Positions 2,605 to 31,001 of a DNA stretch of 52,087 nucleotides are shown in pieces. The stretch's first letter is position 1, and each line of letters opens with the position of its first letter. This DNA is from Escherichia virus TH21, in the sequence record MT446395.1, one strand, 5' to 3'. The notes under the pieces are model-generated. The model was not told the origin of the DNA and did not search any database. It was given only the letters and a program-made list of their open reading frames with translations. The position numbers and the translations under genes are program-made.

Positions 2605-2621
2605 TTTAGCAAATCGTGCCA
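2605..2621 (-). promoter_or_regulatory. palindromic operator-like element (variant TGGCAC-N3-TTGCTAAA) of the repeated cassette, upstream of cor
   Basis: plus strand tttagcaaatcgtgcca; followed on minus strand by TATAGT and leader ATCGAAACGAAAC then AAGGAA-ATG. Confidence 0.5.
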
Positions 2622-2995
2622 TTTGATATACATGTAACCGATGTAACTCGGTGTATACAATCTCGTCCGCGGAAAATGATATACGCGCAGTTACGCCTAG
2701 TTACGCGATAGTTACATTAAAATATCTATATATATCAACCTTCTACTATAATTATTATTATTATATATATTACTGTGTATATCGTGTAACTACTTCTATA
2801 GAGTGTTCCGCTTATAAATTTCTAATATGGTTATTTATACAGTATCTAATCACGCATACACTAATGCACCCTCCGCGAAAAATGATATACACGATATACA
2901 CGCTGTTTACATCAAGCTATGGCTGGGCCGGATAGCCATTTTATGTAACTAATGCCATTACATACACGCTATTACAAATATCTACATGTAACTAC

Positions 2996-3023
2996 TTGAC
3001 TGACGCAACCAAGCGCGTATAGT
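2996..3023 (+). promoter_or_regulatory. sigma70-type promoter (TTGACT-N16-TATAGT) for the recombination operon
   Basis: hexamers read directly at 2996..3001 and 3018..3023; ATG at 3057. Confidence 0.55.
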
Positions 3024-3056
3024 TACCCACATCAACAACGAACGAGGATTAAAGAG

Positions 3057-4097
3057 ATGACCAAGCCAATGTTTCAATACTTCACGTCAGAAGAAATGAG
3101 CAACGACTTTTACCACAGCAAAGATGAGTGGACCGCCGAGTATGTATCAGGCTCATCACTCAGCAAGATCCACAGTACTTGCCCTGCGGCGTGGAAGTTT
3201 GAAATGAACTCGACGACTAAGGCGCTGGTCTTCGGTACGCAGTCGCATACCAATTTCGAGAGTAAGGCTCTTTTTGAACGTCAATATCGCCGCGCACCGA
3301 AAGAAAGCGAGATTGAAAACGTAATCACTAGCCAGGCGACATTGGCAACGAAATTAAAATCATTTGGCCTGACTGGTACAAGCGGCAAGCAATATCCAGA
3401 GCTAATCAAAATGATGGTTGATTGTGGAGAAGATCTCAACGTCATGTGGCTGATTAATATGATCGCACAGTGTCAGGCGTGGGCCGATGGTGTGGAACTG
3501 GTTAAAGCGGAAGACTACGACGCTTGCGTAAGTATGCGACAGGTTCTTGAAATGATTCCTGAACATAATGCTTGCATGAACAGCGAAACGGCATTCCGTG
3601 AGTATTCTTTGTTCGGCGTAATTTGTGGCGTTAAAGTTAAGGTGCGACTTGACCATGTTGATATTGTTAAAGATCCAGAAGCTATCCGACGCATGGGTTA
3701 CGATCCTGAGATTCACCCTGAAATTGTCGTCATCACTGATTACAAAACGACAATGAGCGCCAACCCGACCGAGTTCCCTCGCCTGGCGTTCAACCTTGGC
3801 TATTACCTCAAGATGGCATTGCAGCGTGACCTGTTCGTTAAGTGCTTTGAAGAAACGCGACCTGTGGTTGTGCGATTGCTGGCCCAGGAGAAGAAGGAGC
3901 CTTACTTGCCTATGGCGTACCGGATGAGTAGCGATCAGCTTAAGATTGGTCGAGCGCAGTACATGAGCGTGATTCACACCTTCTCAATGTGCGAAGCCAA
4001 TGACGTATGGCCTTCATACAATAATGGCGAGCCGGAAGTAGAACTGGATACGCCTGATTGGGTAATGAAACAGTTCAATCATATCCTAGAAGCATAG
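3057..4097 (+). CDS. recombination exonuclease, PD-(D/E)xK-type
   Basis: 346 aa; D...(I)TDYK nuclease-like motif; first gene of exo-annealase-SSB triad. Confidence 0.55.
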   Translation: MTKPMFQYFTSEEMSNDFYHSKDEWTAEYVSGSSLSKIHSTCPAAWKFEMNSTTKALVFGTQSHTNFESKALFERQYRRAPKESEIENVITSQATLATKLKSFGLTGTSGKQYPELIKMMVDCGEDLNVMWLINMIAQCQAWADGVELVKAEDYDACVSMRQVLEMIPEHNACMNSETAFREYSLFGVICGVKVKVRLDHVDIVKDPEAIRRMGYDPEIHPEIVVITDYKTTMSANPTEFPRLAFNLGYYLKMALQRDLFVKCFEETRPVVVRLLAQEKKEPYLPMAYRMSSDQLKIGRAQYMSVIHTFSMCEANDVWPSYNNGEPEVELDTPDWVMKQFNHILEA

Positions 4098-4111
4098 CAC
4101 TTTTTGCTAAA
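4095..4111 (+). promoter_or_regulatory. cassette palindrome TAGCAC-TTT-TTGCTAAA overlapping the exonuclease stop codon
   Basis: TAG stop is the first 3 nt; TATAAT in hairpin ggtgat..atcacc at 4131..4136; leader ATCAAACGAAG. Confidence 0.5.
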
Positions 4112-4173
4112 CACGAACGCGGTGATTTGCTATAATCACCGTAAATCAAACGAAGTAAACAAAGGTATATATA

Positions 4174-4830
4174 ATGCGTACATCAGAGAAGTTTTCGAAT
4201 GTTTCAGCCGCTCTAATTGCAGCTAAAAAGCAGTTTGCTATCGCAAAAAAATCAGGCTTTAACACTCACCTGAAAAACCATTACTCAAACCTGACGGACG
4301 TTCTGGAGGCCGTTGAACCAGCGCTAAAAGAGCATGACCTTATGGTTATCCAGTCAAACCTGGACACGTCAACCGAAAAGGTAATGCACATTGAGACGCT
4401 CATCCTTCACAGTTCTGGCGAGTGGCTTGCGTTCCAGTACAATATGCCGATCGAGAAGATTAGCGCCCAGGCTTACGGCTCAACAACCTCATACGGTCGC
4501 CGTTACGCATTGTGCGCAGCGCTTGGAATCACTCAGAGCGATGACGACGCTGAAATCGCGAAGCGCACGGCAGCGGACTACAAAAAACTGATCACCAACT
4601 GTGAAAAACTGGAAGACCTCCAGGTGATCTATAAGAGCGCGAAAGGTTCGCTTGGCGCGGCGGAATGGAAGATTGCAGAAGACCACTTGCAGAAGCGCAA
4701 GGCTGAACTGAGTATCGGTAACGCTCGCGGTTTCCAGCCAGCGAAAAAGGCAGATACTCAAAAGGTTGAAGACAAGGTTGCAAACGCACATTCTGAACCT
4801 GTACAATCTGAATCCATCGAACAATTCTAA
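4174..4830 (+). CDS. single-strand annealing protein, Erf-like
   Basis: 218 aa; N-terminal AAKKQF...HLKNHYSNLTDVLEAV and GRRYAL motif pattern typical of Erf-family proteins. Confidence 0.55.
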   Translation: MRTSEKFSNVSAALIAAKKQFAIAKKSGFNTHLKNHYSNLTDVLEAVEPALKEHDLMVIQSNLDTSTEKVMHIETLILHSSGEWLAFQYNMPIEKISAQAYGSTTSYGRRYALCAALGITQSDDDAEIAKRTAADYKKLITNCEKLEDLQVIYKSAKGSLGAAEWKIAEDHLQKRKAELSIGNARGFQPAKKADTQKVEDKVANAHSEPVQSESIEQF

Positions 4831-4870
4831 TCAACGGGGCTTCTGCCCCAACAAAAAAAAGGAAAACACA

Positions 4871-5314: not shown

Positions 5315-5324
5315 TAAAAGATAA

Positions 5325-5346
5325 AGCCCCTTTCGGGGCTTTTTTA
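5325..5346. terminator. bidirectional intrinsic terminator (SSB operon / tail-fibre gene)
   Basis: hairpin agcccc-tttc-ggggct with T-run on both strands. Confidence 0.7.
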
Positions 5347-8058
5347 TTGAATCCTACCACCACTATCACCAATCACACCAGTAAATCCAAGCAATGGCGA
5401 CGATAATCCTATTGGTGTTTGACCATTATCAAATGTGCATCCAATCATACTATCCATTATCGTTACGTTTGGTGATACCCCAGTATCCACAAAGCGACAA
5501 CCATTCCACGAAGCCCTTGGCAGGTTGCTAACTGAGCTTGATGCTGAGTTTGGAAGGGGGTAAACCCTTGTTCCGTTGAAGTTAATCCAGCAATTTTCGT
5601 TTCTACCTCCACTCGAATCCCCTAATCCAAGAAGTGTTCCACCATTAACCTCTATTGTGCAAGGTATAGATGCCCTTGCTGCGATTCCAGTGACGTTATC
5701 AAGCTTAAACCTTGGAACTACGCTTGATGAAGGGAAGGCCGCAACCTCAGTTTGAGTGTAAAGCAAATCAAAAGTTAAAGTACCTTCCCCTCCGCTCATT
5801 ATCGCCCTACCTGGTGTAAAGCCGCTGTTTATGTTTGAGATGGAGACCTCGCAGTTAAAGCCCCTGTTCTTGTTCGCTGAAGCAACTAGAGATGTGCTGT
5901 ATGATAGGTTTGTCATAACAACTGGCTCAACTTTGTTATAGCTTGTAGCATGACTAAAATTCAAGTTATCTACATTTACAACTGATGCTGGCATCGTTGA
6001 TGGGGCAACCCATAGCTTTCTGTAGTTTAACCCAGCAAGTGAGATCCAGGATTTCCTTTGTGCCGGATTGTGCAAGTGCAAAGTAACATCTCGAATAGTA
6101 ACGCTATTTGCCCATGGAACAGCAGACGTATACCCAAAGTCTGCATAGCTCTGGTCTAAAGAGCTTCCTTTAGGTATTCCAGAGTTAAAGCTAACAACAC
6201 TAATCACTGCTGGCAAAGCCTCTGTAGCGAGAGAGAATATGTTGTTTGTTGCAAGTTCAATATGTATATTGCTAACAAAAATAACTCCATCAAAGTAGTT
6301 TCCGTAATCGCCTCTGAAGTAAATAACGGAAAGCATATATATCAATGGGTTGGTTCTATCATACTGATAAAAGTCAGATAGGTAAGGTATAATCCTTGAG
6401 CAGTTAGTTACAGAGAGCCTTCCGCCACCAGTGCCCATAGTTACTCCAAATTCACTTAAAATGCAATTATCTATAGATATGTTGTATCCGTGATAGTGAA
6501 CGTCAACCCTGTTTAAAGTTGAGTTTGTAACATTTAAACCCTGTATTACATTAAATGAAATAGAACCCCACCCTTGAACGGAGTTGATGCAATCAAACTT
6601 AACATCACAGTTACCCCTACCTGAGAATACATATGTGCCATTAATAGTCTCCTGTGAGCTATTCGCCTCGGCAAAAATTCTATTGAAGTAAACCTGACTA
6701 ACGCATAAATCAAGGTAATAAACCTGCCTGATGTTAGCTAACCTTTGGTTTTGAAAATCCCTTAATGTGTGATCATTAAATACAACCTGTGACCTTGAGC
6801 ACTTGAATACAACCCCAGTAACAAACCTAGATGTGTCTATAGTTGCGTTACTTACATTTAAAATGAATGACTCGTCATCTCTTACCCTGGTACTGACATA
6901 ATTGTCATTGTTGAATGAGTGCTCAAGTGGGTATCTAAGTTCACCAAACTTCTCAATCCTGTTTATGCTTGTTTTATATTCAGTGCCTGAAGGAACTCCA
7001 CCTGAAGAACCAAGACTTGATCTGTAGCAAAAGTATTGAGATGATCCAACGGTAACTGTTTTTCTTGATAGAGATGAAAGTGAATCTATATATGTAGTCC
7101 CCTTCGTGTAATTAGCCTTATTTATCATGTTAGTAACATCAACAAGTGGATTTCCAGTGATGTTAAATGTAGGTGTGGTTAAGTATCCAGGTTCAGCGGT
7201 TGATACAGGTTTTATTACACATCCATTAAAATCAACAGATGTCTTAACCTCTATGTTTGCGTCAGCTAGCAACTGGACTTCACTAACGTTGTATAAAACA
7301 GATAGCTTGTTATCATTAGCGAATGAGTGTAAAGATCTTACCTTTTCAGTCTCATCGCCGCTACCTGTAATTCCAAAGTGTGATGAAGGAACACGCCCAT
7401 TGTTAATGTAGTTCTCAACCTCTGAAACAACACCAAGATTTTTCCTTGCTAAATCTTTATCTTGCAAGTCAGAGAAATTAAGGTCTTTACGCAGAAGATT
7501 TGATGAATCAAGTGACGCTGCGTAATCTGCTGCTTCCTGTGCTGAAGCCGCTGCTGCGTTTTTGTCTGATGATGCACTGGCTGCGCTTGCCGCTGCCGCA
7601 TTCTTATCAGCAGTTACCTGGGCTGAATCCGCTGACACTTGAGCCCCAATGGTGATAATTTCTCCATGCTGCGTGTTAATTTGGTTAACGTCATTTGAGA
7701 ATTTATCCTGATCAAAATCTTTAAAAATATCAACAGCTGTTGCAACTTCTGTTTCACGCGACTGATAGTAACGCAGAGTTTCGGCAACATCCTGAGCTAA
7801 ACCCTGAACGGTAATCCCATCGTGAGCAAGAATCGCGTAACCAGTTCCGGAAGGAACAGTTTCAGAATTAGGGTTGTAAACATTAATCTGAGTGTCGCTT
7901 ATGATTTCAGAGATGGTGTAAATCTGCACTGGCTCAGTTTTAAATACAATGGTTGCACCTACGCGAATCAGTGTAAGCGGTGCCTTCCACGTTGTCCCTA
8001 CACCAGTAACCTCGCCATTTGCGGCTAGCGACGCCGTTCCTAAGTCATAAATTGCCAT
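5344..8058 (-). CDS. tail fibre / tailspike-like protein with beta-helix-like body
   Basis: 904 aa from ATG 8058 (AGGAG 9 nt upstream); Asn/Ser/Thr/Val-rich repeats; internal DKNAAAASA duplication. Confidence 0.65.
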   Translation of the reverse strand: MAIYDLGTASLAANGEVTGVGTTWKAPLTLIRVGATIVFKTEPVQIYTISEIISDTQINVYNPNSETVPSGTGYAILAHDGITVQGLAQDVAETLRYYQSRETEVATAVDIFKDFDQDKFSNDVNQINTQHGEIITIGAQVSADSAQVTADKNAAAASAASASSDKNAAAASAQEAADYAASLDSSNLLRKDLNFSDLQDKDLARKNLGVVSEVENYINNGRVPSSHFGITGSGDETEKVRSLHSFANDNKLSVLYNVSEVQLLADANIEVKTSVDFNGCVIKPVSTAEPGYLTTPTFNITGNPLVDVTNMINKANYTKGTTYIDSLSSLSRKTVTVGSSQYFCYRSSLGSSGGVPSGTEYKTSINRIEKFGELRYPLEHSFNNDNYVSTRVRDDESFILNVSNATIDTSRFVTGVVFKCSRSQVVFNDHTLRDFQNQRLANIRQVYYLDLCVSQVYFNRIFAEANSSQETINGTYVFSGRGNCDVKFDCINSVQGWGSISFNVIQGLNVTNSTLNRVDVHYHGYNISIDNCILSEFGVTMGTGGGRLSVTNCSRIIPYLSDFYQYDRTNPLIYMLSVIYFRGDYGNYFDGVIFVSNIHIELATNNIFSLATEALPAVISVVSFNSGIPKGSSLDQSYADFGYTSAVPWANSVTIRDVTLHLHNPAQRKSWISLAGLNYRKLWVAPSTMPASVVNVDNLNFSHATSYNKVEPVVMTNLSYSTSLVASANKNRGFNCEVSISNINSGFTPGRAIMSGGEGTLTFDLLYTQTEVAAFPSSSVVPRFKLDNVTGIAARASIPCTIEVNGGTLLGLGDSSGGRNENCWINFNGTRVYPLPNSASSSVSNLPRASWNGCRFVDTGVSPNVTIMDSMIGCTFDNGQTPIGLSSPLLGFTGVIGDSGGRIQ

Positions 8059-8081: not shown

Positions 8082-8100
8082 TTTAGCACGAATTGCTAAA
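8082..8100 (-). promoter_or_regulatory. perfect 19-bp palindrome TTTAGCA-CGAAT-TGCTAAA between a TATAAT box and the tail-fibre RBS
   Basis: on minus strand: TATAAT (8110..8105), palindrome, AGGAG (8072..8068), ATG 8058. Confidence 0.5.
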
Positions 8101-8125
8101 GTGCATTATAGCATTACGTCAGGCA

Positions 8126-8148: not shown

Positions 8149-8153
8149 AATTG

Positions 8154-9147: not shown

Positions 9148-9627
9148 TTATTCTTTAGCTTTCCGTGCTGCTTCGTTTGCTGCTTTAATTTTTCGCCATG
9201 AGCGACATTCAGGCTTAGTGGCTAGTTCAGCCTCGGTGACGACGCGCAACATGTGACGCTTTTTGCAACGCAGCGTTAGCGGCTTACCGTTCCCGTCGAA
9301 TTGCAAGTCTGGTCGGCAGAATGTAGCGCGGAACCCTTCGCCAGTTCGCTTATATCGGTTGTGCGCCAGTTGAGCACCGCGCGCCGACATCATCCCACGC
9401 TTAAACCATTCCTCAACTGCCTGTCGAGTAACTTTTAATTGCTTCGCCATGTTCGCCTTGCTGCCGTAGAACTCAAACACAATATCAAGTCGCGCTCTTA
9501 ATCCGGCCTTTACTTCATCCTTGAGAACATAGTAACCTGACGGTCGTTTGCGCTGCTTCTTATCTTCCGTGCGGATAGTTCCGTTGTTACCGTTAAGAGT
9601 ACGCTTATCATTTGCATTCATTTTCAT
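9148..9627 (-). CDS. helix-turn-helix DNA-binding protein (putative transcriptional regulator)
   Basis: 159 aa, basic; HTH-like segment MAKQLKVTRQAVEEWFKRG. Confidence 0.4.
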   Translation of the reverse strand: MKMNANDKRTLNGNNGTIRTEDKKQRKRPSGYYVLKDEVKAGLRARLDIVFEFYGSKANMAKQLKVTRQAVEEWFKRGMMSARGAQLAHNRYKRTGEGFRATFCRPDLQFDGNGKPLTLRCKKRHMLRVVTEAELATKPECRSWRKIKAANEAARKAKE

Positions 9628-9635
9628 CACCTCAA

Positions 9636-9652
9636 TAGCACTTTTTGTTAAA
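9636..9652 (+). promoter_or_regulatory. cassette palindrome (TAGCAC-TTT-TTGTTAAA) upstream of helicase
   Basis: followed by TATTATAAC and leader ATCGAACGAAC; ATG 9715. Confidence 0.45.
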
Positions 9653-9714
9653 CATTGGTTTCGATGGTTGTTATTATAACGTCAATCGAACGAACATGAA
9701 AGGCATTTAATACT

Positions 9715-11817: not shown

Positions 11818-12242
11818 TTACAGATAAAGGCGACTACCTGGAATATTACACTCCAGACAAATCGGATACATGGACCGAAAGCAAACACCAGATCGATTGC
11901 GTGACCTGGACTAAAGTTAGGCATGGCGACCTATTATTCTGGCACACCGTTAATGAGGGCGAGAAGACGATGCATTCAGCCCTTGTTGACGGTCAGAGCG
12001 GGTTATTGAAGGGGGTTAGTGACTTTGTATTCCTTCTCGGCCTGTTCGGTAAATATCCGTTCGGGGCCATAGAATTGAAGCGAGTAAATAAAAGCGGGAA
12101 AGGCAAGGCATCACCAGTCAGCAAGAAGCAGAAAGATTTCCTCCGGCGTGTCCGTGAGCGTGGAGGATTCGCGGCGGTGGCGTACGGCCAGGAGGAATAC
12201 AAGAAAGCTGTTGCTGATATGCTGAATAGCACGAATTGCTAA
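11814..12242 (+). CDS. VRR-NUC-type nuclease
   Basis: 142 aa; D...ELK PD-(D/E)xK core (GVSDFVF...GAIELKR); ATGA overlap with helicase. Confidence 0.55.
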   Translation: MITDKGDYLEYYTPDKSDTWTESKHQIDCVTWTKVRHGDLLFWHTVNEGEKTMHSALVDGQSGLLKGVSDFVFLLGLFGKYPFGAIELKRVNKSGKGKASPVSKKQKDFLRRVRERGGFAAVAYGQEEYKKAVADMLNSTNC

Positions 12243-12243
12243 A
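12227..12243 (+). promoter_or_regulatory. cassette palindrome TAGCACGAATTGCTAAA overlapping the end of the VRR-NUC gene
   Basis: encodes ..STNC*; hairpin ggtgaggtg..cacctcatc with TATTAT; leader ATCGAAACGAAG. Confidence 0.5.
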
Positions 12244-12308
12244 GACGAATCGGTGAGGTGGTGTATTATCACCTCATCGAAACGAAGTAACCAACCAAGG
12301 AAATTAAA

Positions 12309-13312: not shown

Positions 13313-13543
13313 ATGAGCAATGTACAAATTAATTTAACCGACAAAGGTCAGTATCTTTTATTCCGCGCCATCGTTTGTGAGGTGTTAACGAAAGCAGGAT
13401 TTAAGGGTGACGCTTGGGCGTTCTCGGATCTGGATATGTCATTCGAAGAAGTGCAGGATCAGCCGATTAACACATGGGCTAAAGCAATACGAAAGGATAT
13501 GGAAGACTATAAACGCGATTGCCCCGAAGATTTCGCAGAATAG
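13313..13543 (+). CDS. hypothetical protein
   Basis: 76 aa from ATG 13313 (GGAG 8 nt upstream); ORF track 13304 is a GTG extension. Confidence 0.45.
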   Translation: MSNVQINLTDKGQYLLFRAIVCEVLTKAGFKGDAWAFSDLDMSFEEVQDQPINTWAKAIRKDMEDYKRDCPEDFAE

Positions 13544-13557
13544 CACTAATTGCTAAA
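13541..13557 (+). promoter_or_regulatory. cassette palindrome TAGCACTAATTGCTAAA
   Basis: TAG stop overlaps; GC hairpin tacccgccgccgcgcgggta; leader ACGAGACGAGGAA. Confidence 0.5.
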
Positions 13558-13613
13558 CATACCCGCCGCCGCGCGGGTATACTTCTTTCATACCAACGAG
13601 ACGAGGAATCACC

Positions 13614-14544: not shown

Positions 14545-15687
14545 ATGGCTATTCAAAAAATCACTGACGAACAATTCATTGCTGAGCGCGAAGCTGGTAA
14601 AACACTGCGCCAAATCGCCCAGGAATACGGGATGAACATTCGAACCGTTGAGCAGCGATCAAGTCGCCTGGCAAAGCGAGGTGAGTTCCACGGCAATAAG
14701 CACGTAAGCGTACACGTACCGGAGGGTTTTCATGTTAAGGGCACATCGACTATGATTCGCGCTGACGGTTCTGAGGTCGTGCGCTGGGTTAAGACCGATC
14801 AGGACAAGGAAAAGTTAGCCGCCATGATGGATGCTGCAATTGAAGCATTCTGTGACGAACTCCCGCGCGCGGCGGCTCAGCCTATCCTTGGTGAGCCTCA
14901 CTATGATGAAAATCTCCTGGCGCTCTACCCTGTATTCGATCTTCACATCGGTGCTATGGCCCACAAGCATGAATGCGGTGAGAACTACAGTACAGACATC
15001 TCAGAGAAAGTGCTGAAAAACTTCTTTGATTATTCCGTAGGCGTATCACCGAAGGCAAAGAAAGCGGTTCTGTTAATCGGCGGTGACTTCCTTCACTCTG
15101 ATGGCCTGGATGCTGTAACGCCTGCAAGCGGTCACGTACTGGATCAGGATAGTAGATACGCTAAGCTCGTTCACGTTGCAATCCGTTCCGTCCGCCGCGC
15201 GGTGGCGCAAATGCTGGATAAGCACGAAGAGGTCGAAATTCAGATCATTGAAGGGAACCATGACCAGGCGGGTATGATTTGGCTCCGCGCTGCAATGGCT
15301 GCATACTTTGAAGATGAGGTGCGCGTAACGGTTGATGTTTCACCTATGATTCTTCACCGTACGAAGTGGGGTAAAACATTGCTGGGATACACTCATGGTC
15401 ACACCATGAAGAAAGCAGATACTCGACTGGCGGCAATGGCTACTGACTTCCGCGAAGAGTTCGGTACGAGCAAATATATTTACACTCACTCAGGTCACTG
15501 GCATCACCAGACGATCACGGAAGGCACGCTGGGTATTGATGAGGTTCACGGTCAGCTTGGCGCGAAAGATGCCTACGCGGCGCGCGGCGGTTGGCGCTCA
15601 TATCGCCAGGCAGCGGTAATTGTCTACTCCAAGGAGTTCGGCGAAGTAGGTCGCTTCGTTTACCGTCCTGAAATGAGCGACATCTAA
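14545..15687 (+). CDS. HTH domain fused to calcineurin-like metallophosphoesterase
   Basis: 380 aa; N-terminal HTH-like KTLRQIAQEYGMNIRTVEQ; GDFLHSDG, GNHD, GHTH, GHWHH metal-binding motifs. Confidence 0.55.
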   Translation: MAIQKITDEQFIAEREAGKTLRQIAQEYGMNIRTVEQRSSRLAKRGEFHGNKHVSVHVPEGFHVKGTSTMIRADGSEVVRWVKTDQDKEKLAAMMDAAIEAFCDELPRAAAQPILGEPHYDENLLALYPVFDLHIGAMAHKHECGENYSTDISEKVLKNFFDYSVGVSPKAKKAVLLIGGDFLHSDGLDAVTPASGHVLDQDSRYAKLVHVAIRSVRRAVAQMLDKHEEVEIQIIEGNHDQAGMIWLRAAMAAYFEDEVRVTVDVSPMILHRTKWGKTLLGYTHGHTMKKADTRLAAMATDFREEFGTSKYIYTHSGHWHHQTITEGTLGIDEVHGQLGAKDAYAARGGWRSYRQAAVIVYSKEFGEVGRFVYRPEMSDI

Positions 15688-15704
15688 TAGCACGAATTGC
15701 CTAA
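15688..15704 (+). promoter_or_regulatory. cassette palindrome (TAGCACGAATTGCCTAA)
   Basis: directly after TAA stop; hairpin tatagcgcc-ggaa-ggcgctata. Confidence 0.45.
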
Positions 15705-15758
15705 CACTATAGCGCCGGAAGGCGCTATATTCATATCTCACTTACAGAGGATTCAATC

Positions 15759-19732: not shown

Positions 19733-19796
19733 GATTATTTTCCTTTGGTGTGTTTCGTTTCGATGAGATGAATATACAGGAAAAGCCCCGAAGGGC

Positions 19797-19813
19797 TTTA
19801 GCAATTCGTGCTA
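19797..19813 (-). promoter_or_regulatory. cassette palindrome TAGCACGAATTGCTAAA overlapping the stop of the methyltransferase-like gene
   Basis: followed on minus strand by hairpin agccc-ttcg-gggct plus T-run, TATATT, leader ATCGAAACGAAAC. Confidence 0.5.
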
Positions 19814-20494
19814 TTTGGTTAAATGATTTGCCAGGTATACGGCGCGCGCAAATCCACGAGGAGTCAGTGAGCGCAACTGCTTGGTTTTTGCAGACTTCCC
19901 GCCGAGGTACTTCCATCCCCAAAAGAATCCAATGTTAATCGGGCCAGGCTTCTTCACTGGCTCAACGAATCCGTTACCATGCCAGATGCAAGTTTTCTTC
20001 GTGTAGCCGTCGTATTTCGGCATTTTTTCGTGGTACGGAAGATCGTGAGCTTTCATGAGTCCGCCGTATTCATACGGATTGAAGTAGAAGTCAGGCTTAC
20101 GCCACAGGCTTGACAGCTTGCCTACCGGATTCTCGACCATCCAGGGTGCCTGGAAGTGATTTCCGACTTCCTCGACGAGCTTCGCATTAGCCAGGGCGTA
20201 CGCCAGTTCATCATCACTGCGCTCATGCTGTGATCCAGACTGAGAGAACAGCGTGCAATCAGGGAATCCGATAACCATCTGCGCCGGAGGAAGGCCGAGC
20301 AATTCACACTTGGTAATGAAATCCTTGTCAATCCACATGTTGACGTAGTGAATGTTCTCATGCTTCATCTTGATGTGATATTCGCCATGATTGCCGGAGT
20401 CCGCGTTGAAGCAGTAGACGGTGTGACCATCTTCCGCCCATGGGAGGCCAGCGATACCAGAACCGTCGAACAAGCAGTAAATTACCTTTTTCAT
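19811..20494 (-). CDS. C5-cytosine methyltransferase-like protein (short, orphan)
   Basis: 227 aa; motif I-like CLFDGSGIAG, motif IV-like GFPDCTLFSQSG, motif VI-like VENP, in canonical order. Confidence 0.4.
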   Translation of the reverse strand: MKKVIYCLFDGSGIAGLPWAEDGHTVYCFNADSGNHGEYHIKMKHENIHYVNMWIDKDFITKCELLGLPPAQMVIGFPDCTLFSQSGSQHERSDDELAYALANAKLVEEVGNHFQAPWMVENPVGKLSSLWRKPDFYFNPYEYGGLMKAHDLPYHEKMPKYDGYTKKTCIWHGNGFVEPVKKPGPINIGFFWGWKYLGGKSAKTKQLRSLTPRGFARAVYLANHLTK

Positions 20495-21340: not shown

Positions 21341-21404
21341 TTTTACTTCCTCTTTGTGTACTTCGTTTCGATGAAATGATTATGCCTCATTCCGTGAGGC
21401 TTCG

Positions 21405-21421
21405 TTTAGCAATTCGTGCTA
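21405..21421 (-). promoter_or_regulatory. cassette palindrome TAGCACGAATTGCTAAA
   Basis: preceded by TAA stop; hairpin gcctca..tgaggc, CATAAT, leader ATCGAAACGAAG. Confidence 0.5.
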
Positions 21422-21422
21422 T

Positions 21423-22537: not shown

Positions 22538-22592
22538 CTCTATATCCTTCGTTTCGATGGAGTGAATCTTAGCAAATCACTCCTGATTGGTA

Positions 22593-22609
22593 ATTAGCAA
22601 ATCGTGCTA
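22593..22609 (-). promoter_or_regulatory. cassette palindrome TAGCACGATTTGCTAAT
   Basis: followed by 7-bp-stem hairpin ggagtga..tcactcc and leader ATCGAAACGAAGG. Confidence 0.45.
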
Positions 22610-22610
22610 T

Positions 22611-22937: not shown

Positions 22938-22997
22938 TTGCTTGCTCTCTGTGTCTCGTTTCGATGAAGTAATAATACCCCATCGTGAGATCTGGCG

Positions 22998-23014
22998 TTT
23001 AGCAATTCGTGCTA
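22998..23014 (-). promoter_or_regulatory. cassette palindrome TAGCACGAATTGCTAAA
   Basis: followed by TATTAT and leader ATCGAAACGAGAC. Confidence 0.5.
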
Positions 23015-23016
23015 TT

Positions 23017-23404: not shown

Positions 23405-23468
23405 GATGATTTCCTTTAGTGCGTGTCGTTTCGATTAGGTAATAATAGCGAATCACTCCTGATCGGTC

Positions 23469-23485
23469 ATTAGCAAAAAGTGCTA
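23469..23485 (-). promoter_or_regulatory. cassette palindrome TAGCACTTTTTGCTAAT at the head of the minus-strand operon
   Basis: followed by TATTAT and the conserved leader. Confidence 0.45.
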
Positions 23486-23499
23486 TTCGTTCGATTTAT

Positions 23500-23625: not shown

Positions 23626-23681
23626 TGAGATCTGATCCCCGATCGCCTGGTAGGATTTTCCCGCCACACGTTTCATCTATT

Positions 23682-23830
23682 TACACGTAACCGAAGTAGC
23701 ACGGTGTAAGCCACACCCATATCGTTACGCGGGTTACGCGCAGCTACGCCCTGACTTACGCCATAAGTCCTTAATATATATATATATCTTCTTTCTATTA
23801 TTATTATTATTATTAATATTATTGTATGTA
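23682..23830. repeat. AT-rich repeat segment paralogous to 2629..2790, with (AT)7 and (TTA)6 microsatellites
   Basis: tacacgtaaccgaagtagcacggtgta vs tacatgtaaccgatgtaactcggtgta; cgcgcagYtacgcc shared; microsatellites in both copies. Confidence 0.55.
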
Positions 23831-24033
23831 AGTCGTGTAACTGGGGTGCTGGAGTTATCTATATGTTTTTTCCTATCAGGGTATATATTTGCTATTTATG
23901 GACGCATTTCGCCAGTACGGGGCCATGACATCAATTTGCCTCGTTACAGCCACGACACCAAACTACATTGAGCTATAGCTGGGCTGTGATACCTTTTCGC
24001 GTAACCACCCCCGAAAGTTACCAAAAATTACAC

Positions 24034-24062
24034 TTGACTACATGTGTAAGTCGGGATACGAT
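24034..24062 (+). promoter_or_regulatory. sigma70-type promoter (TTGACT-N17-TACGAT) for the plus-strand accessory operon
   Basis: hexamers read directly; ATG at 24094 after GAGAGGAG. Confidence 0.5.
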
Positions 24063-24093
24063 TAGCTCAACTTAAACGAGAGGAGTTATAAAG

Positions 24094-25127: not shown

Positions 25128-25342
25128 TGCTTATAAAATGTGTGTATGTAAGGCAAGCCAATCACCACAACCTTTCAGTTGTAAATGGCGGGATATACGT
25201 GGCTAAGCCAATACCTTGTTTTAATGGCTCATACTACATCAAGGTTGATGGCAATGAGTACATAGTGAAGACGATAGGTGAAGCTCTTATGATAAAGAGC
25301 CTTGGTGTTATAATGGCTAAATTCGAAATCGTTCGTGAATAG
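25127..25342 (+). CDS. hypothetical protein
   Basis: 71 aa from ATG 25127 (ORF track 25121). Confidence 0.4.
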   Translation: MLIKCVYVRQANHHNLSVVNGGIYVAKPIPCFNGSYYIKVDGNEYIVKTIGEALMIKSLGVIMAKFEIVRE

Positions 25343-25356
25343 CACAAATTGCTAAA
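25340..25356 (+). promoter_or_regulatory. cassette palindrome TAGCACAAATTGCTAAA
   Basis: TAG stop overlaps; hairpin gggtagtcagctatgattaccc; leader ACGAAGAGGAA. Confidence 0.5.
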
Positions 25357-25412
25357 CAACAAATCGGGTAGTCAGCTATGATTACCCTATCAACAACGAA
25401 GAGGAAATGATC

Positions 25413-26027: not shown

Positions 26028-26314
26028 AGAAACTAATTTTATTAGCAGCACTGGCTCTGGCTGGATGTGATTTCGGAAGCACCCGTGTAGATTCAGAGGC
26101 TCGGCAGAAGATGCCAGTGAATGTCAACGATCGCGTCCAGGTTGTGAAGATTCAGGAGTTCAGGGATGAACTGGCATATGAGAACGTCAGAGCGATATAC
26201 GTCATCACCGATAAGGACACTGGTCAGGAATACATCGGATTAAGCGGTGTCGGGATCGTGGAAGTTGGTCGCCATGGTTGCGGCAAGGGATGCTCCAGAG
26301 AAGATGAACGATAG
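26024..26314 (+). CDS. small lipoprotein
   Basis: 96 aa; signal peptide with lipobox LAGC. Confidence 0.55.
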   Translation: MKKLILLAALALAGCDFGSTRVDSEARQKMPVNVNDRVQVVKIQEFRDELAYENVRAIYVITDKDTGQEYIGLSGVGIVEVGRHGCGKGCSREDER

Positions 26315-26328
26315 CACTTTTTGTTAAA
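26312..26328 (+). promoter_or_regulatory. cassette palindrome TAGCACTTTTTGTTAAA
   Basis: TAG stop overlaps; hairpin gtgcatttgctatagtgcac. Confidence 0.45.
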
Positions 26329-26393
26329 ACTTCCGTGGGTGCATTTGCTATAGTGCACTCATTGAAGTGAAACAATCAACTAAGGGGTAATTT

Positions 26394-27035: not shown

Positions 27036-27130
27036 AGTTCAAATTAGTTGACGTGCTGCAATTGCTGTGTATCGGTTTATCGTGGGTGATGCTGTTCCTG
27101 GTGGTAATCTTCCTGGCTGTGGTGAAATAG
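27032..27130 (+). CDS. 32-aa hydrophobic membrane peptide
   Basis: not in ORF track; single predicted TM helix; ATGA overlap; stop TAG is part of the next cassette. Confidence 0.35.
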   Translation: MKFKLVDVLQLLCIGLSWVMLFLVVIFLAVVK

Positions 27131-27144
27131 CACGAATTGGTAAA
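27128..27144 (+). promoter_or_regulatory. cassette palindrome (TAGCACGAATTGGTAAA)
   Basis: followed by ctgactggTATACT. Confidence 0.45.
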
Positions 27145-27198
27145 ACGATATTCTCCCTGACTGGTATACTTCTTTCATACCAACAAGGGAGAAATGAA

Positions 27199-27387
27199 AT
27201 GACCACTTACACCACGATTTACACTCACTGCGGCAAGGCGTTCACGGCACTGGCTGAGGATATGGAATATCTGCCTTGGCACCAGGTGTGGAAGATGCAC
27301 AAAATCACTTCCACCGGAACGCAGGAGTGGTTCTTGAGAAAGATTTACGTGGCTGAGGTTATTCACCACAACGAAAAATTCGAATAG
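27199..27387 (+). CDS. hypothetical protein
   Basis: 62 aa from ATG 27199 (RBS AAGGGAGA). Confidence 0.4.
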   Translation: MTTYTTIYTHCGKAFTALAEDMEYLPWHQVWKMHKITSTGTQEWFLRKIYVAEVIHHNEKFE

Positions 27388-27401
27388 CACTTTTTGTTAA
27401 A
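27385..27401 (+). promoter_or_regulatory. cassette palindrome TAGCACTTTTTGTTAAA
   Basis: hairpin aaggccatttgatatagtggcctt. Confidence 0.45.
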
Positions 27402-27467
27402 CCTTCCGCAAGGCCATTTGATATAGTGGCCTTATTGAAGCAAAACAACCAATCAGAGGATTTGCAG

Positions 27468-28226: not shown

Positions 28227-28228
28227 TT

Positions 28229-28432
28229 ATGATTCCGTTGAAGCCAATAGTTTTTATGCGTAATGGGATATGGTTTGCCGTAGTTTGCGGTACTGGATAC
28301 ATCTATTCAAAAACCGCAGGTCGATGGTTTAAGGCTTTAAGCCAGGCGGCGTTATTTACTAATTTGGTTACAGCAGTTCGCACAAGAACGGCATATCAGG
28401 TTAAGGGGTTAAAAAATGCAAGTATACACTAA
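28229..28432 (+). CDS. hypothetical protein
   Basis: 67 aa from ATG 28229 (AAGGAG 8 nt upstream). Confidence 0.4.
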   Translation: MIPLKPIVFMRNGIWFAVVCGTGYIYSKTAGRWFKALSQAALFTNLVTAVRTRTAYQVKGLKNASIH

Positions 28433-28634
28433 CAGTAAAGGTATTGAATTTTGCGCGGTCGGAGGTGTGGTCCTGCGCACTGGTGGCGGGTACGGGATTA
28501 TTAACACCTCAGGCATCACACAGGATCAGTTGGTAAAGGGCATCCAGGCTGGAATCTTTACCTATCACTCATCGTTGACGGCTGATGATTACATCACACT
28601 TGATGCTGCGGTTCGCGTTGGGTTCATCGAATAG
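28416..28634 (+). CDS. hypothetical protein
   Basis: 72 aa. Confidence 0.4.
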   Translation: MQVYTNSKGIEFCAVGGVVLRTGGGYGIINTSGITQDQLVKGIQAGIFTYHSSLTADDYITLDAAVRVGFIE

Positions 28635-28648
28635 CACCTTTTGTTAAA
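28632..28648 (+). promoter_or_regulatory. cassette palindrome TAGCACCTTTTGTTAAA
   Basis: followed by hairpin with ctgactggTATAAT. Confidence 0.5.
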
Positions 28649-28706
28649 AGGGGATTCATCCTGACTGGTATAATCCCCACATCAACCACACGAAAGGAAG
28701 TTAAAA

Positions 28707-29246
28707 ATGAATCAGATGTACACCATGATTAAGCACGAATTGAATACCGCGGAAATCAATGCGCCAGTCTACGTGTTTGATTACGACGGTACGCTGTCGG
28801 ACGGATCGCATCGTTTGCATAAGTTGCCTACAAAGGATTTGCACCTTACTGAGTCATGGTCTGAGTTCAATCGATTGTCAGAGCGTGATGAGCCTATCGA
28901 ATCAACCATTCAGGTAATGAATAGCCTGTACTACTCCGGCGCGTTCATCATCATACTAACCGGGCGCTCAGATGAGGTGTGCGAGATTTCAACTAAATGG
29001 CTTCACGATGCTGGCGCTAAATACAACGTTCTGGTCATGCGCCAGGATGATGACAACCGCAAGGATACGATCATCAAGGAAGAATTTTTACGATACATTG
29101 GCTTGCACCGCATCACCGCAGCGTGGGATGATAGCGTGAGTGTTATAAAGCACTTCCGCAGCTTAGGTATTACCACCTATCAGGTTTGTGATTACGCCGA
29201 TAACAATCGAGAGGATTTAAAATCTCATGGGGTGCATAAGAAGTGA
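28707..29246 (+). CDS. HAD-superfamily phosphatase/nucleotidase-like protein
   Basis: 179 aa; motif I FDYDGTLSDG (DxDGT). Confidence 0.5.
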   Translation: MNQMYTMIKHELNTAEINAPVYVFDYDGTLSDGSHRLHKLPTKDLHLTESWSEFNRLSERDEPIESTIQVMNSLYYSGAFIIILTGRSDEVCEISTKWLHDAGAKYNVLVMRQDDDNRKDTIIKEEFLRYIGLHRITAAWDDSVSVIKHFRSLGITTYQVCDYADNNREDLKSHGVHKK

Positions 29247-29730
29247 TTCAGAGTACCTAAAATTCCTATTCAGTTACAATGACGGGGTGATAACTTGGCG
29301 AAACAAGTCATCACCTCAAAGTAGGATTGTTTTAGGTGAGCGAGCAGGAAGTTTTGATAAGGATGGATACCTGATCGTAAGGGTTAGAAATCAAACATCG
29401 TCGATACATAGGATCGTGTGGGTTTATCATAACGGAGAAATACCAGCCGGATTTGAAATTGACCATGTTGACGGCGATAAACTAAATAACAGGATTGAAA
29501 ACTTAAGACTCACAACAAGATCTGTTAATTGCAGTAATCAGAGAAAGAGAATTGATAACACCAGCGGTGTTTGTGGTGTAACATTCATGAAAGATAGGCT
29601 AAAATACAGGGCGCAAGTCAGAGGTGTAAGGCTTGGTCAATTCGATACTAAAGAAGAAGCCGCCGAGGCTGTTGCTAAGTACAGATCATATTCTGGCGGA
29701 TTCACTGAAAGACACGGTAAGGAGATTTAA
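29227..29730 (+). CDS. HNH homing endonuclease (HNH + AP2-like DNA-binding domain)
   Basis: 167 aa; HNH core IDHVDGDKLNNRIENLR; paralogous to 36891..37373. Confidence 0.65.
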   Translation: MGCIRSDSEYLKFLFSYNDGVITWRNKSSPQSRIVLGERAGSFDKDGYLIVRVRNQTSSIHRIVWVYHNGEIPAGFEIDHVDGDKLNNRIENLRLTTRSVNCSNQRKRIDNTSGVCGVTFMKDRLKYRAQVRGVRLGQFDTKEEAAEAVAKYRSYSGGFTERHGKEI

Positions 29731-29733
29731 AAA

Positions 29734-30354
29734 ATGTCAAAGATTATCATTCTCAACGGTCCAGCTTCGGTTGGTAAAGACACGATTGGCAACGCCCTAG
29801 CAGCAGATTACAACTGCATCCCGACCAGCTTCAAGCGTCCGATGTTTGAGATTGCAGCATCCATCCTTGGGGCCAGGGCTTTTTCAAAGTTCATCACAGC
29901 ATACGACGACCGCGATCAGAAAGAGATGCCTCAGAGCTTCCTTGGTGGCAAGACATGCCGCGAGTTCATGATCTGGATTAGCGAGTCTGTGGTAAAGCCG
30001 CTATTTGGCAACCAGCAATTCGGAAAGCTGATGAGCGAACATATCAAGCTGTGTGACGAAGGATTCTGTTTTGTGTGTACTGATGGCGGCTTCCCTGATG
30101 AAGTGATCAGGCTCGTTGAAGATGGTCACGATGTTACCCTGGTCCGCTTGTTCATGGATGGCAAGACTTTCGCGGGAGATAGCCGTGATTACATCCGCAT
30201 CAAGCAATCGCACTTCCCTGATTACAAGAAATATAACGAGCATGATGTGCATCTGGTAAATGGTGATGTTGATGATGGCGTCCTTAAAGTAGTTCGCGCT
30301 TGCTTGGTTAGTCCTTCAATGGATGATGATTGGGCAGACGATATTCCTTGGTAA
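29734..30354 (+). CDS. deoxynucleoside monophosphate kinase with acidic SSB-tip-like C-terminus
   Basis: 206 aa; P-loop GPASVGKDT; C-terminus DDDWADDIPW. Confidence 0.6.
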   Translation: MSKIIILNGPASVGKDTIGNALAADYNCIPTSFKRPMFEIAASILGARAFSKFITAYDDRDQKEMPQSFLGGKTCREFMIWISESVVKPLFGNQQFGKLMSEHIKLCDEGFCFVCTDGGFPDEVIRLVEDGHDVTLVRLFMDGKTFAGDSRDYIRIKQSHFPDYKKYNEHDVHLVNGDVDDGVLKVVRACLVSPSMDDDWADDIPW

Positions 30355-30355
30355 A

Positions 30356-30372
30356 TAGCACGAATTGCTAAA
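30356..30372 (+). promoter_or_regulatory. cassette palindrome TAGCACGAATTGCTAAA
   Basis: followed by terminator-like hairpin cccgc-tacg-gcggg plus TTTTGTT and TATAGT. Confidence 0.5.
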
Positions 30373-30427
30373 CCCGCTACGGCGGGTTTTGTTATAGTTA
30401 GTTCACACCAAACGAGAGGAAAGCAAA

Positions 30428-30586
30428 ATGATTACTATCAACCTGTCAGACAAGCAAGCTATCATCCTTAAGCAACTACTGGCGACTCAGACTATGCAGT
30501 GCACAGCCGATGAGTTCTCTGAGATGGTCAAAGAGGTCCGAACTCAGATCAATAATCAACAATTCGACGAAAACGAAGGGGAATAA
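30428..30586 (+). CDS. hypothetical small protein (52 aa)
   Basis: not in ORF track; RBS GAGAGGAAAG. Confidence 0.4.
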   Translation: MITINLSDKQAIILKQLLATQTMQCTADEFSEMVKEVRTQINNQQFDENEGE

Positions 30587-30588
30587 CC

Positions 30589-30987
30589 ATGAAATTACGT
30601 TGTGTTAAAATACATCCAGGGTTAGCGCTGCTGTTTAATGATTACTTTCACGTCGGTCAAGTATATGAGGCTAAGCGCCGACCGAACCGTTTCCTCAACG
30701 TGGCTGATGTCACTGATGGCTATAACGGTCTTTCATGGTACGCCGTCCAGAAAGGGAGCAAGTTCAACCTTAATCTGGCAAGCGGCCCAGCAGTCACTTT
30801 CGTGGTAGTAAAAGGTCCGCGCCGCCTTGTTGTAACTGAGAGGCGCGTAACTGGAGTCCTTAATGATAAGCGTAAGTTCCGCCGCATGTGCCGCCAGTAT
30901 GGAAAACTTCGATTCACCGAACCTGGAATGTTCTGCTTTATCGCCTTCGCGGCAATGAAAAAGAATGCACGAAATCACCAGCGATAG
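30589..30987 (+). CDS. hypothetical basic protein
   Basis: 132 aa, Arg/Lys-rich. Confidence 0.45.
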   Translation: MKLRCVKIHPGLALLFNDYFHVGQVYEAKRRPNRFLNVADVTDGYNGLSWYAVQKGSKFNLNLASGPAVTFVVVKGPRRLVVTERRVTGVLNDKRKFRRMCRQYGKLRFTEPGMFCFIAFAAMKKNARNHQR

Positions 30988-31001
30988 CACTTTTTGTTAA
31001 A
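30985..31001 (+). promoter_or_regulatory. cassette palindrome TAGCACTTTTTGTTAAA
   Basis: hairpin ggggtagctgtatagttacccc; leader ATCGAAACGAACGAGGAA. Confidence 0.5.

Follow-up and report, generated by a model that had tools for sequence, protein, structure and literature searches.

What reads a short repeat that recurs between the genes of Escherichia virus TH21, and what does it do there? TH21 is a T1-like coliphage of the genus Nouzillyvirus in the family Drexlerviridae, and the window analyzed here is the whole 52,087-nt stretch of its DNA (sequence record MT446395.1). The repeat itself is already known. A 2024 paper on phage TLS describes a 21-nt intergenic repeat in 18 copies with the consensus aaATAGCACnnnTTGnTAAAA, lists its function as an open question, and suggests stoperators, enhancer sites or UP elements; its authors found only three sigma70-like promoters in that phage (PMC11447400). 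Among the papers found, this is the only one that prints the repeat sequence, and the record of phage Stevie annotates repeat copies as repeat_region. A literature search that did not cover subscription journals found nothing linking the marbox, the binding site of MarA, SoxS and Rob, which regulate stress response and antibiotic resistance in the host, to phage promoters, and the genome papers on T1 and Rtp may hold an earlier statement. The sequence comparisons presented here suggest that regulators of this type are borrowed to run about 18 phage promoters. Specifically, the repeat is read as a marbox in class II position and the window as containing 18 class II-type promoter units, a reading to which a probability of about 70% is assigned.

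The repeat was searched as TAGCACNNNTTGCTAAA with up to two mismatches on both strands of the window, with dinucleotide-preserving shuffles as the control. The search returned 20 matches at 19 sites, and the coordinates are exactly those of the original prediction, which had been made from the sequence of the window alone and had described a 19-copy repeat. The prediction had named equal frequency in coding or shuffled DNA as the outcome that would speak against it; every site is intergenic or overlaps a stop codon, and shuffled windows yield 0.48 matches on average and three at most. The repeat also supplies or abuts the upstream stop codon, as proposed. Its own TAG is the stop at eight sites (4095, 13541, 19797, 25340, 26312, 27385, 28632 and 30985) and its TAA at one (12227), and at five further sites the stop lies immediately 5' of the repeat or one base away.

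The repeat is conserved in T1, Rtp, TLS, Stevie and Klebsiella phage KpCol1, T1-like phages of the kind in which a motif search had been proposed. These five genomes contain 14 to 21 sites each, and at up to two mismatches the six genomes hold 17–21 copies apiece. Together with the window they provide a collection of 116 copies, of which 104 are followed by a -10-like hexamer 20±1 nt 3' of the core. The 15-bp core of the repeat, GCAC-N3-TTG(C/T)TAAA, is the MarA/SoxS/Rob/RamA binding consensus. The published MarA/SoxS/Rob site reads 5'-GCAHWWWWTGYYAAA-3' and is asymmetric because it is bound by a monomer that carries a pair of helix-turn-helix (HTH) motifs (PMC6900184). Perfect matches to it make up 54 of the 104 phage sites, against an expectation of about 0.02 per genome, and another 40 carry one mismatch, which is usually a G at the first W (the GAA subtype). 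The repeat varies exactly at the degenerate positions of the marbox, with C/T at H, changes in the central W run, and C/T at the first Y. Its left part, GCAC, is invariable, and its right part reads TGYTAAA, so the element is non-palindromic and has a defined orientation. The 7-bp palindromic arms described in the original prediction shrink to 5 bp of symmetry (TAGCA/TGCTA) within a consistently asymmetric element.

An independent position weight matrix (PWM) leads to the same sequence. It was built exclusively from 87 chromosomal Salmonella sites mapped by chromatin immunoprecipitation sequencing (ChIP-seq) targeting MarA, SoxS, Rob and RamA (PMC10268841), and its consensus is GCACTAATTGCTAAA, i.e., the phage repeat. 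The 15 best PWM matches in the window are all repeat sites and score 15.5–18.6 of a possible 18.6, compared with a median of 11.5 for the ChIP sites, 14.9 for Escherichia coli micF and 12.9 for the mar promoter. At a threshold of 14.4 or more, the window has 16 matches and the shuffles 0.6. Some Salmonella ChIP-seq targets are identical to phage 15-mers, including GCACAAATTGCTAAA and GCATTTTTTGCTAAA.

By published rules, class I marboxes are reversed and lie 5' of the -35, and class II marboxes are forward, overlap the -35 and are centred at about -36 to -55, typically near -41; on average, only 1.9 of six positions in a class II promoter agree with the -35 consensus. In the cryo-electron microscopy structure of the RamA-micF complex, the activator contacts sigma region 4 and the C-terminal domain of the RNA polymerase alpha subunit (alpha-CTD). 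E. coli micF served as calibration: its core GCACTGAATGTCAAA is followed after 20 nt by TAGAAT, and the core centre lies at -41 from the annotated 5' end of the small RNA.

The phage units share the 20-nt core-to-hexamer distance of micF. It is exactly 20 nt in 88 of the 104 sites, 19 nt in nine and 21 nt in seven. With the right half of the repeat as reference, 72 of the 116 copies have TAnnnT exactly 22 bp after TTGCTA, another 16 have it at 21 or 23 bp (88 in total), and every other spacing tested occurs at 0–7 sites. The core is forward relative to the -10 in 104 of the 116 copies and spans -47 to -33 relative to the +1 deduced from the hexamer, with the whole repeat at -49 to -33. The units combine forward orientation, overlap with the -35 position, a centre near -41 and the lack of a -35 hexamer. 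The -35 position itself reads AAAnnn. Aligned on the hexamer, a G at -14 is present in 82 of the 104 sites and a T at -15 in 52, which gives the TG of an extended -10. A standard scan for sigma70 promoters and terminators did not detect the units and gave no enrichment over shuffles; it is blind to them because they have no -35 at 16–18 bp.

These distances bear on what the original prediction said of the promoter. It had placed a TATAAT-like hexamer 19–23 bp from TTGCTA; the hexamer is there, but the measured range is 21–23 bp and mostly 22 bp. Its statement that TTGCTA is not a standard -35 is borne out, as the 22-bp spacer puts it 5 bp too far upstream for sigma region 4. Its broader view of a protein-recognition element that is tied to a -10 box and marks the boundaries of transcription units likewise agrees with the results. 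A version in which TTGCTA is a true -35 whose spacer is shortened by a cruciform was discarded, since inverted repeats flank or precede the -10 inconsistently.

Between the repeat and the hexamer the sequence is unconserved yet folds, with a mean minimum free energy (MFE) of -10.5 kcal/mol, a mean z of -2.8 against shuffles, and an MFE of -5 kcal/mol or lower at 84 of the 104 sites, in agreement with the proposed hairpins. The stems are of two kinds, ending near -12 or enclosing the hexamer and ending at -1 to +3. Twelve stems of the first kind carry a T-run that merges into the -10, and several of these are annotated as terminators in T1. Some hairpins are indeed terminators, as had been supposed. 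Downstream, the sixth position after the hexamer is C in 69 of the 104 sites and the seventh is A in 86. The leader CATCGAAACGA begins at the presumed +1, because these C/A positions fall at the canonical start position. The conserved leader of the original prediction, ATCGAAACGA, is exact at nine sites and degenerate elsewhere, and it is not an obligatory partner of the repeat. It is replaced by unrelated leaders in phages IME_EC2 and PSKM, described below, and is most simply a lineage-specific A/C-rich 5' untranslated region (UTR), with or without the RNA-level role that the prediction gave it.

The 18 units of the window each have a box, a -10, a +1 and an ATG. In the following list, the +1 is predicted from the -10 position, and the marbox is the 20-mer read from the sequence; a literature search found no transcript mapping of T1-like phages.

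2571–2622, minus strand: upstream of a phage lipoprotein gene (ATG 2537); marbox 2622–2603, ATGGCACGATTTGCTAAAGA; TGnTATAGT with -10 at 2583–2578; +1 at A2571 (CATCGAAACGAA).
4094–4143, plus strand: TAG is the stop of an exonuclease VIII-like gene; would drive the Erf gene (ATG 4174); marbox 4094–4113; extended -10 TATAAT 4131–4136 inside the hairpin CGGTGAT...ATCACCG (-12.7 kcal/mol); +1 at 4143.
9635–9684, plus strand: helicase operon (ATG 9715); marbox 9635–9654; TATTAT 9672–9677; +1 at 9684.
12226–12276, plus strand: TAA is the stop of a VRR-NUC gene; would drive a 90-aa gene and Dam (ATG 12309); marbox 12226–12245; TATTAT 12264–12269 in a hairpin (-17.6 kcal/mol); +1 at A12276.
13540–13590, plus strand: ATG 13614; core GCACTAATTGCTAAA, scoring 18.6 of 18.6 possible with the ChIP-derived PWM; terminator-type hairpin ACCCGC...GCGGGT ending 5' of TATACT 13578–13583; +1 at 13590.
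15687–15738, plus strand: upstream of the lysis cluster (ATG 15759); marbox 15687–15706, weaker (GCCTAA); hairpin TATAGCGCC...GGCGCTATA; TATATT 15726–15731.
19764–19814, minus strand: TAG is the stop of a methyltransferase-like gene; ATG 19732; marbox 19814–19795; terminator GCCCttcgGGGCtttt; TATATT 19776–19771; +1 at A19764.
21372–21422, minus strand: ATG 21340; marbox 21422–21403; CATAAT 21384–21379 with G at -14; +1 at A21372.
22558–22610, minus strand: ATG 22537; marbox 22610–22591; TGnTAAGAT with -10 at 22571–22566; CATCGAAACGA at 22559.
22965–23015, minus strand: ATG 22937; marbox 23015–22996; TATTAT 22977–22972; +1 at A22965.
23435–23486, minus strand: first of the leftward early arm (ATG 23404); marbox 23486–23467; TATTAT 23447–23442; +1 at A23435.
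25339–25389, plus strand: ATG 25407; core GCACAAATTGCTAAA, PWM score 18.5, identical to a SoxS ChIP site on Salmonella pSLT; TATGAT 25377–25382.
26311–26361, plus strand: ATG 26394; marbox 26311–26330; TGcTATAGT with -10 at 26349–26354 in a hairpin (-14.5 kcal/mol); +1 at A26361.
27127–27177, plus strand: ATG 27194; marbox 27127–27146 (GGTAAA); TGgTATACT with -10 at 27165–27170.
27384–27434, plus strand: ATG 27468; marbox 27384–27403; TGaTATAGT with -10 at 27422–27427, hairpin -12.9 kcal/mol.
28631–28681, plus strand: upstream of polynucleotide kinase (PNK)/HNH genes (ATG 28707); marbox 28631–28650; TGgTATAAT with -10 at 28669–28674; +1 at A28681.
30355–30405, plus strand: ATG 30428; marbox 30355–30374; the intrinsic terminator CCCGCtacGGCGGGTTTTG in the spacer runs into TGtTATAGT, -10 at 30393–30398.
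30984–31034, plus strand: last before the packaging genes (ATG 31058); marbox 30984–31003; TATAGT 31022–31027 in the hairpin GGGGTAGCT...; +1 at A31034.

The two divergent early arms are separated by a gap of about 420 bp without a marbox (23670–24093). This gap contains the early region's best canonical sigma70-like match (TTGACT-17 bp-TACGAT at 24034–24062) and probably carries activator-independent immediate-early promoters.

On this reading, each cassette would combine terminator and promoter in a compact unit, with a consensus marbox in class II position as its upstream element. A host activator that binds marboxes is hypothesized to sit as a monomer at about -50 to -31; it could be the constitutive Rob, the stress-induced MarA or SoxS, or, in Klebsiella, Salmonella and Enterobacter, RamA. 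Once bound, it would touch sigma70 region 4 and the alpha-CTD, as in the RamA-micF complex, and recruit host RNA polymerase to an extended -10 promoter that otherwise has no -35. Transcription would start at the A of CATCGAAACGA and give an A/C-rich 5' UTR of 17–34 nt. The variable hairpin would act on upstream transcripts as an intrinsic terminator where it has a T-run and otherwise as an attenuator or 3' stabilizer, a role put forward with the same caution for the stems that enclose the hexamer. The same host factor may turn the early units on and hold late promoters down, with replication-driven titration flipping the balance.

A host factor fits the distribution of the repeat. No phage-encoded MarA homologue or AraC-family protein was detectable in the window, T1, Rtp, TLS, Stevie or KpCol1 by Pfam search of 30 proteins and by tblastn. 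All detectable T1-like relatives infect Enterobacterales, and MarA-like factors are described as conserved in enteric bacteria. About 20 records labeled as Campylobacter phage with host C. jejuni (MG065643, MG065663, MG065665, MG065680 and others) contain T1-like portal and regulator genes that are 62–69% identical to those of TH21; they look like T1-like enterobacterial phages, and the host label may be wrong.

Further copies, and one of the 18 boxes, lie where a bound protein would hinder a promoter. The features concerned are the following.

8083–8113, plus strand: tail-fibre site, a perfect marbox over the presumed start of the minus-strand tail-fibre promoter.
8150–8058, minus strand: tail-fibre promoter with terminator 8150–8128, TGcTATAAT 8113–8105, reversed core 8100–8086 at about -2 to +13, ribosome-binding site (RBS) and ATG 8058.
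39211–39238, plus strand: sigma70-like major-capsid promoter with TTGCGC 39211–16, 16 bp, and TGcTATTAT 39230–38.
9148–9630, minus strand: Cro/YdaS-like HTH regulator gene, a homologue of T1 gp23 (phrog_2856, E = 1.7e-82), probable start ATG 9621.

The original prediction had held that the orientation of the repeat always follows the flanking genes and that the structural module is free of it. Neither statement survives. The 8082/8084 site is perfect on the plus strand with both neighbours on the opposite strand, an arrangement kept in T1 (34903+) and Rtp (33763+). The structural module is not free of the repeat, because a degenerate, inverted 20th copy lies at 39218–39234 on the minus strand, directly 5' of the major capsid gene. 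It occupies the spacer of the capsid promoter at about -27 to -11, with its final A changed to G, and the layout is conserved in T1 (TTGACG-16-TATTAT), TLS and Stevie. Both the TG and the TA of the capsid promoter's extended -10 come from the reversed marbox. The capsid promoter directly follows a strong terminator (39175–39197; region 39166–39288), and the capsid 5' UTR contains the inverted repeat AGCCGTGA...TCACGGCT.

The third such position is at the regulator gene. Its promoter on the minus strand has TATAAT at 9678–9673 and a +1 near 9665 (ATCGAAACCA), and the helicase marbox at 9635–9654 falls at about +14 to +28 of this divergent promoter, in its 5' UTR. Within 9619–9684, the -10 boxes of the two promoters overlap (TATAAT 9678–9673 on the minus strand, TATTAT 9672–9677 on the plus strand). 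RNA polymerase can therefore probably occupy only one of them at a time, and the pair could form a switch. TLS has the same divergent layout, with its promoter P57 against the helicase promoter.

MarA, SoxS and Rob repress when a marbox overlaps the promoter spacer, as published for pbpG, and the geometry of the capsid site matches this case. The tail-fibre marbox is likewise in what would be a repressing geometry. With boxes at the capsid spacer, the tail-fibre start and the regulator 5' UTR, the same host factor may hold late genes down and turn early genes on. The likeness to pbpG is that of a box in the spacer or core (capsid box at about -27 to -11, tail-fibre box over +1), whereas in the phage repression is deduced and the capsid box is degenerate. 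The rob promoter is another case of marbox-mediated repression.

The same promoters occur in phages outside the T1-like group. The 41.5-kb podovirus IME_EC2 has six perfect repeats, each with a -10 hexamer at the usual distance, and no homologue of the T1-type regulator was found in it (best tblastn E = 1.7). Its relative Sortsne lacks the repeat. Homologous genes with the same leaders have TTGCAT-17 bp-TATATT or TTGCGG-17 bp-TATATT in Sortsne, whereas the same loci in IME_EC2 have repeat-22 bp-TATAGT or repeat-23 bp-TATTAT (e.g., marbox-20-TATAGT). The repeat thus replaces the -35 in IME_EC2, in the same host and without the T1 regulator, which points to a host factor. A search for a window protein that is common to IME_EC2 yet absent from Sortsne found none. 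One example of this natural promoter swap is IME_EC2 36140–36230 against Sortsne 39257–39350. Both phages also share another recurrent motif, ATCACGAAAGCG, inside promoter spacers, which may be the operator of their XRE-type regulator. An AraC-type match in IME_EC2 (E = 0.001) was rejected as an out-of-frame low-complexity artefact.

The Pantoea phage vB_PagM_PSKM (PSKM) is a myovirus with T1-like head and replication modules and has at least eight units of identical design, such as ATAGCACTTTTTGCTAAA-20 nt-TATTAT. Its gp47 (36886–37296), an AraC-family protein of 136 aa, shares 28% identity with MarA along its full length and has MarA and RamA as its best matches among solved structures. One PSKM box overlaps the stop codon of the gp47 gene. 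Homologues of gp47 are found only in the Dibbivirus group (Pantoea phages PSKM and AAM37 and the "Xanthomonas" phage DIBBI).

Scanning IMG/VR for the exact motif, which also led to the IME_EC2 copies, revealed complete cassettes in T4-like phages (about 178 kb) that infect Klebsiella and Enterobacter. Such T1-type cassettes (marbox, 20 nt, TATTGT, CATCGAAACGAAGGAGG, ATG) are present in T4-like phages of about 176–180 kb from Klebsiella, Enterobacter and Cronobacter, for example Enterobacter phage Taquito and Klebsiella phage phi1_146002 (L101, L104, L136, L144). Their presence is evidence for joint movement of the unit and its gene from one phage family to another. In Rtp, cassettes at 6317, 8426, 16304 and 21394 lie inside the structural module, where they precede inserted HNH genes (rtp20, rtp40) and small genes (rtp22, rtp34) and look like moron-type insertions equipped with a promoter of their own.

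Conservation of the units extends over about 75 bp, and they may therefore also serve as recombination linkers for gene shuffling. In comparisons with four related Nouzillyviruses, 26 of 99 homology breakpoints fall in cassettes that cover 5.6% of the early region, whereas 2000 random placements gave 5.5 on average and never more than 15; this enrichment is only suggestive, because breakpoints prefer gene boundaries in any case and the comparisons, whose four phages share ancestry, are not independent. The promoter-early stem-loop elements (PeSLs) of T4-like phages have promoter and terminator activities, and recombination-mediated gene shuffling through them has been shown experimentally (Arbiol 2010, Comeau 2014). 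Like the TH21 cassettes, PeSLs are repeated intergenic units of a stop, a promoter, a stem-loop between or over the boxes (often GGGG...CCCC), a Shine-Dalgarno sequence and an ATG; PeSLs are enriched beside small accessory genes and at mosaic junctions, as the TH21 cassettes may be. Unlike the TH21 cassettes, they have a canonical sigma70 -35/-10 with an AT-rich upstream region, whereas the TH21 units have a marbox for the -35, and there is no sequence homology between the two.

Turning to what else might read the repeat, the phage's own regulator deserves the closest attention. The original prediction had proposed one dimeric phage regulator and two HTH candidates, of which the protein of 9148–9630 is indeed a Cro/YdaS-like HTH protein, whereas that of 14545–15687 is a DNA-repair exonuclease (phrog_704). 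An AlphaFold2 (AF2) model of the former (pLDDT 86) has an all-alpha Cro-like core, and the HTH core resembles Xfaso-1 and N15 Cro; a fold search matched only this core, and the N- and C-terminal parts match no solved structure. Its N-terminal segment is conserved and basic (DKRTLNGNNGTxRGxDKKxRKRP), and its C-terminal domain is conserved with an invariant C122 and with C105 in at least 90% of homologues. The gene is syntenic in all T1-like genomes examined and has tblastn matches in 824 phage records. In TLS its promoter, P57, is of sigma70 consensus (PMC11447400).

If the repeat were the operator of this regulator, a dimer at about -42 would act as activator, and the regulator would repress the late promoters as well as its own gene. 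The regulator is core and syntenic, the repeat (a TTT-type marbox) lies directly 5' of it in 55 of 58 loci, and of the only three sigma70-consensus promoters in TLS one belongs to the regulator gene, whose 5' UTR contains the repeat. The arms of the repeat are symmetric over 5 bp, its conservation exceeds that of chromosomal marboxes, and lambda cI at OR2 occupies the same position as the centre of the repeat, near -42. The site 5' of the regulator is, however, equally explained as the helicase promoter, and the repeat is asymmetric and strictly oriented and varies only at positions where the marbox is degenerate. IME_EC2, PSKM and the T4-like phages of about 178 kb have the same units without the regulator. 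An operator of this kind is therefore judged unlikely, and the dimeric reader of the original prediction is set aside on the same grounds, namely an asymmetric, oriented element and the same promoters in phages without the T1-type HTH protein. The six perfect IME_EC2 sites occur without the Cro-like protein and with no shared candidate protein, which speaks against it as reader. A two-fold-symmetric operator or stoperator co-occurring with the regulator also failed to emerge, the arms being 5 bp and the repeat occurring without the regulator. No covariation between regulator and site was found across the T1-like family, because both are invariant in it. Three IMG/VR contigs (L065, L066 and L067) have one-base deletions in the T-run of the repeat together with a frameshifted regulator gene, and these "short" variants are most simply homopolymer sequencing errors.

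Other explanations keep the marbox but change its use, or dispense with it. With about 19 consensus marboxes per genome multiplied by replication, the boxes could mainly be decoys that soak up MarA, SoxS and Rob and blunt the stress and efflux response, activation being secondary. The many phage sites outscore almost all chromosomal targets, and the genes under control of MarA-like factors include envelope, efflux and porin genes that matter for phage receptors such as TolC; but a decoy needs neither a fixed orientation nor exactly 20 nt to the -10 nor an intergenic position before the RBS, and in IME_EC2 the box replaces the -35 at homologous promoters, which makes this very unlikely. It is just as improbable that RNA polymerase, through a UP-like or displaced -35-like element, or some other host protein reads the repeat and that the marbox match is coincidental. 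The repeat does lie at -49 to -33, in the alpha-CTD binding zone, TTGCTA resembles TTGACA, the module is portable among unrelated phages of the same hosts, and a UP element or enhancer is among the suggestions of the TLS authors. The core contains GC and is not A-tract-like, though, TTGCTA is too far upstream for sigma region 4, and the maximal match to an independent ChIP-seq PWM together with the micF spacing is hard to call chance. Finally, the conserved unit could chiefly be a PeSL-like recombination linker or an RNA element with a 5-bp stem and 5-nt loop at the 3' ends of upstream messages, a prospect that appears remote. The breakpoint counts, the complete cassettes moved into T4-like phages, the PeSL precedent, and variation at G3:Y13 that fits G:C and G:U pairs speak for it. 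Gene boundaries would attract breakpoints in any case, and RNA ligands seldom combine a conserved stem with a free loop; an Rfam scan of the window at the gathering threshold gave no matches. The exact distance to the -10 and +1 is left unexplained, and a linker or RNA role can coexist with promoter function.

Several known systems were also compared. A sigma54 promoter has the consensus TGGCAC-N5-TTGCW with GG-N10-GC spacing at -24/-12, and it was rejected since TAGCAC-N3-TTGCT is AG-N8-GC. The UP element and the sites of Fis, IHF, CRP and FNR, AraC I1 and the MotA box were considered as well, and none fits both halves and the spacing. In T4 middle promoters, the MotA box TTTGCTTTA replaces the -35 and the activator bridges to sigma70. 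TH21 similarly has a conserved box, TTTGCTAAA, in place of the -35. Centred near -30, the MotA box depends on MotA and AsiA of the phage, whereas the centre of the TH21 box lies at about -41 and its matching activators come from the host; homologues of MotA or AsiA did not turn up in the analysis of T1-like phages, in which no search was aimed at them. Like L5 stoperators, the repeat is one asymmetric site in many copies, oriented with transcription in short intergenic regions, but stoperators serve a temperate phage as repressor sites at which elongation is blocked, and the repeat stands at a fixed distance from the -10 and +1 in a virulent one. The closest likeness is to micF-type class II promoters, with a forward consensus core that overlaps the -35, a centre near -41, no -35 and 20 nt to the -10. 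Chromosomal class II boxes are degenerate, whereas those of this virulent phage are near-consensus, number 14–21 per genome, nest a terminator or hairpin in the spacer and are fused to the upstream stop; their dependence on a host factor is predicted.

Some observations weigh against a class II marbox served by host activators. The +1 is deduced from the -10, and binding and activation by host factors are predicted from sequence. Unstressed laboratory cells contain little MarA and SoxS, and their Rob is reportedly largely sequestered, yet T1-like phages multiply well in them; near-consensus extended -10 elements may also work unaided. The repeat is tighter than the marbox consensus, with ATA before GCAC, a near-invariant T at positions 8 and 12 and a fourth A at the end, which leaves room for an extra reader such as the phage Cro-like protein. 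The first recognition helix of PSKM gp47 differs from that of MarA in the alignment, so the marbox is only a candidate target of gp47. Repression at the three non-canonical sites is argued by analogy.

The class II marbox reading nonetheless provides a concrete and cheaply testable hypothesis for the function of the repeat. A wider proposal, offered tentatively and considered possible rather than probable, is that T1-like phages, including therapeutic Klebsiella phages of the genus Webervirus, hand the whole of early and middle promoter recognition to Rob, MarA, SoxS or RamA, that the capsid and tail-fibre boxes repress, that titration by about 20 consensus sites per genome copy, as phage DNA replicates, times the early-late switch, and that phage expression rises in stressed or multidrug-resistant hosts that overproduce MarA or RamA. 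The promoter swap between IME_EC2 and Sortsne and the MarA-like gene of the Pantoea phages show promoter modules moving between phage families. If the reading is true, about a thousand Drexlerviridae records would gain roughly 15–20 annotated promoters per genome. Phage expression would be linked to antibiotic or bile stress, or to resistant strains that overproduce MarA or RamA, which would be relevant to phage-antibiotic combinations. The Drexlerviridae would then be a clear case of a virulent phage family that uses host stress activators and not a sigma factor, activator or polymerase of its own.

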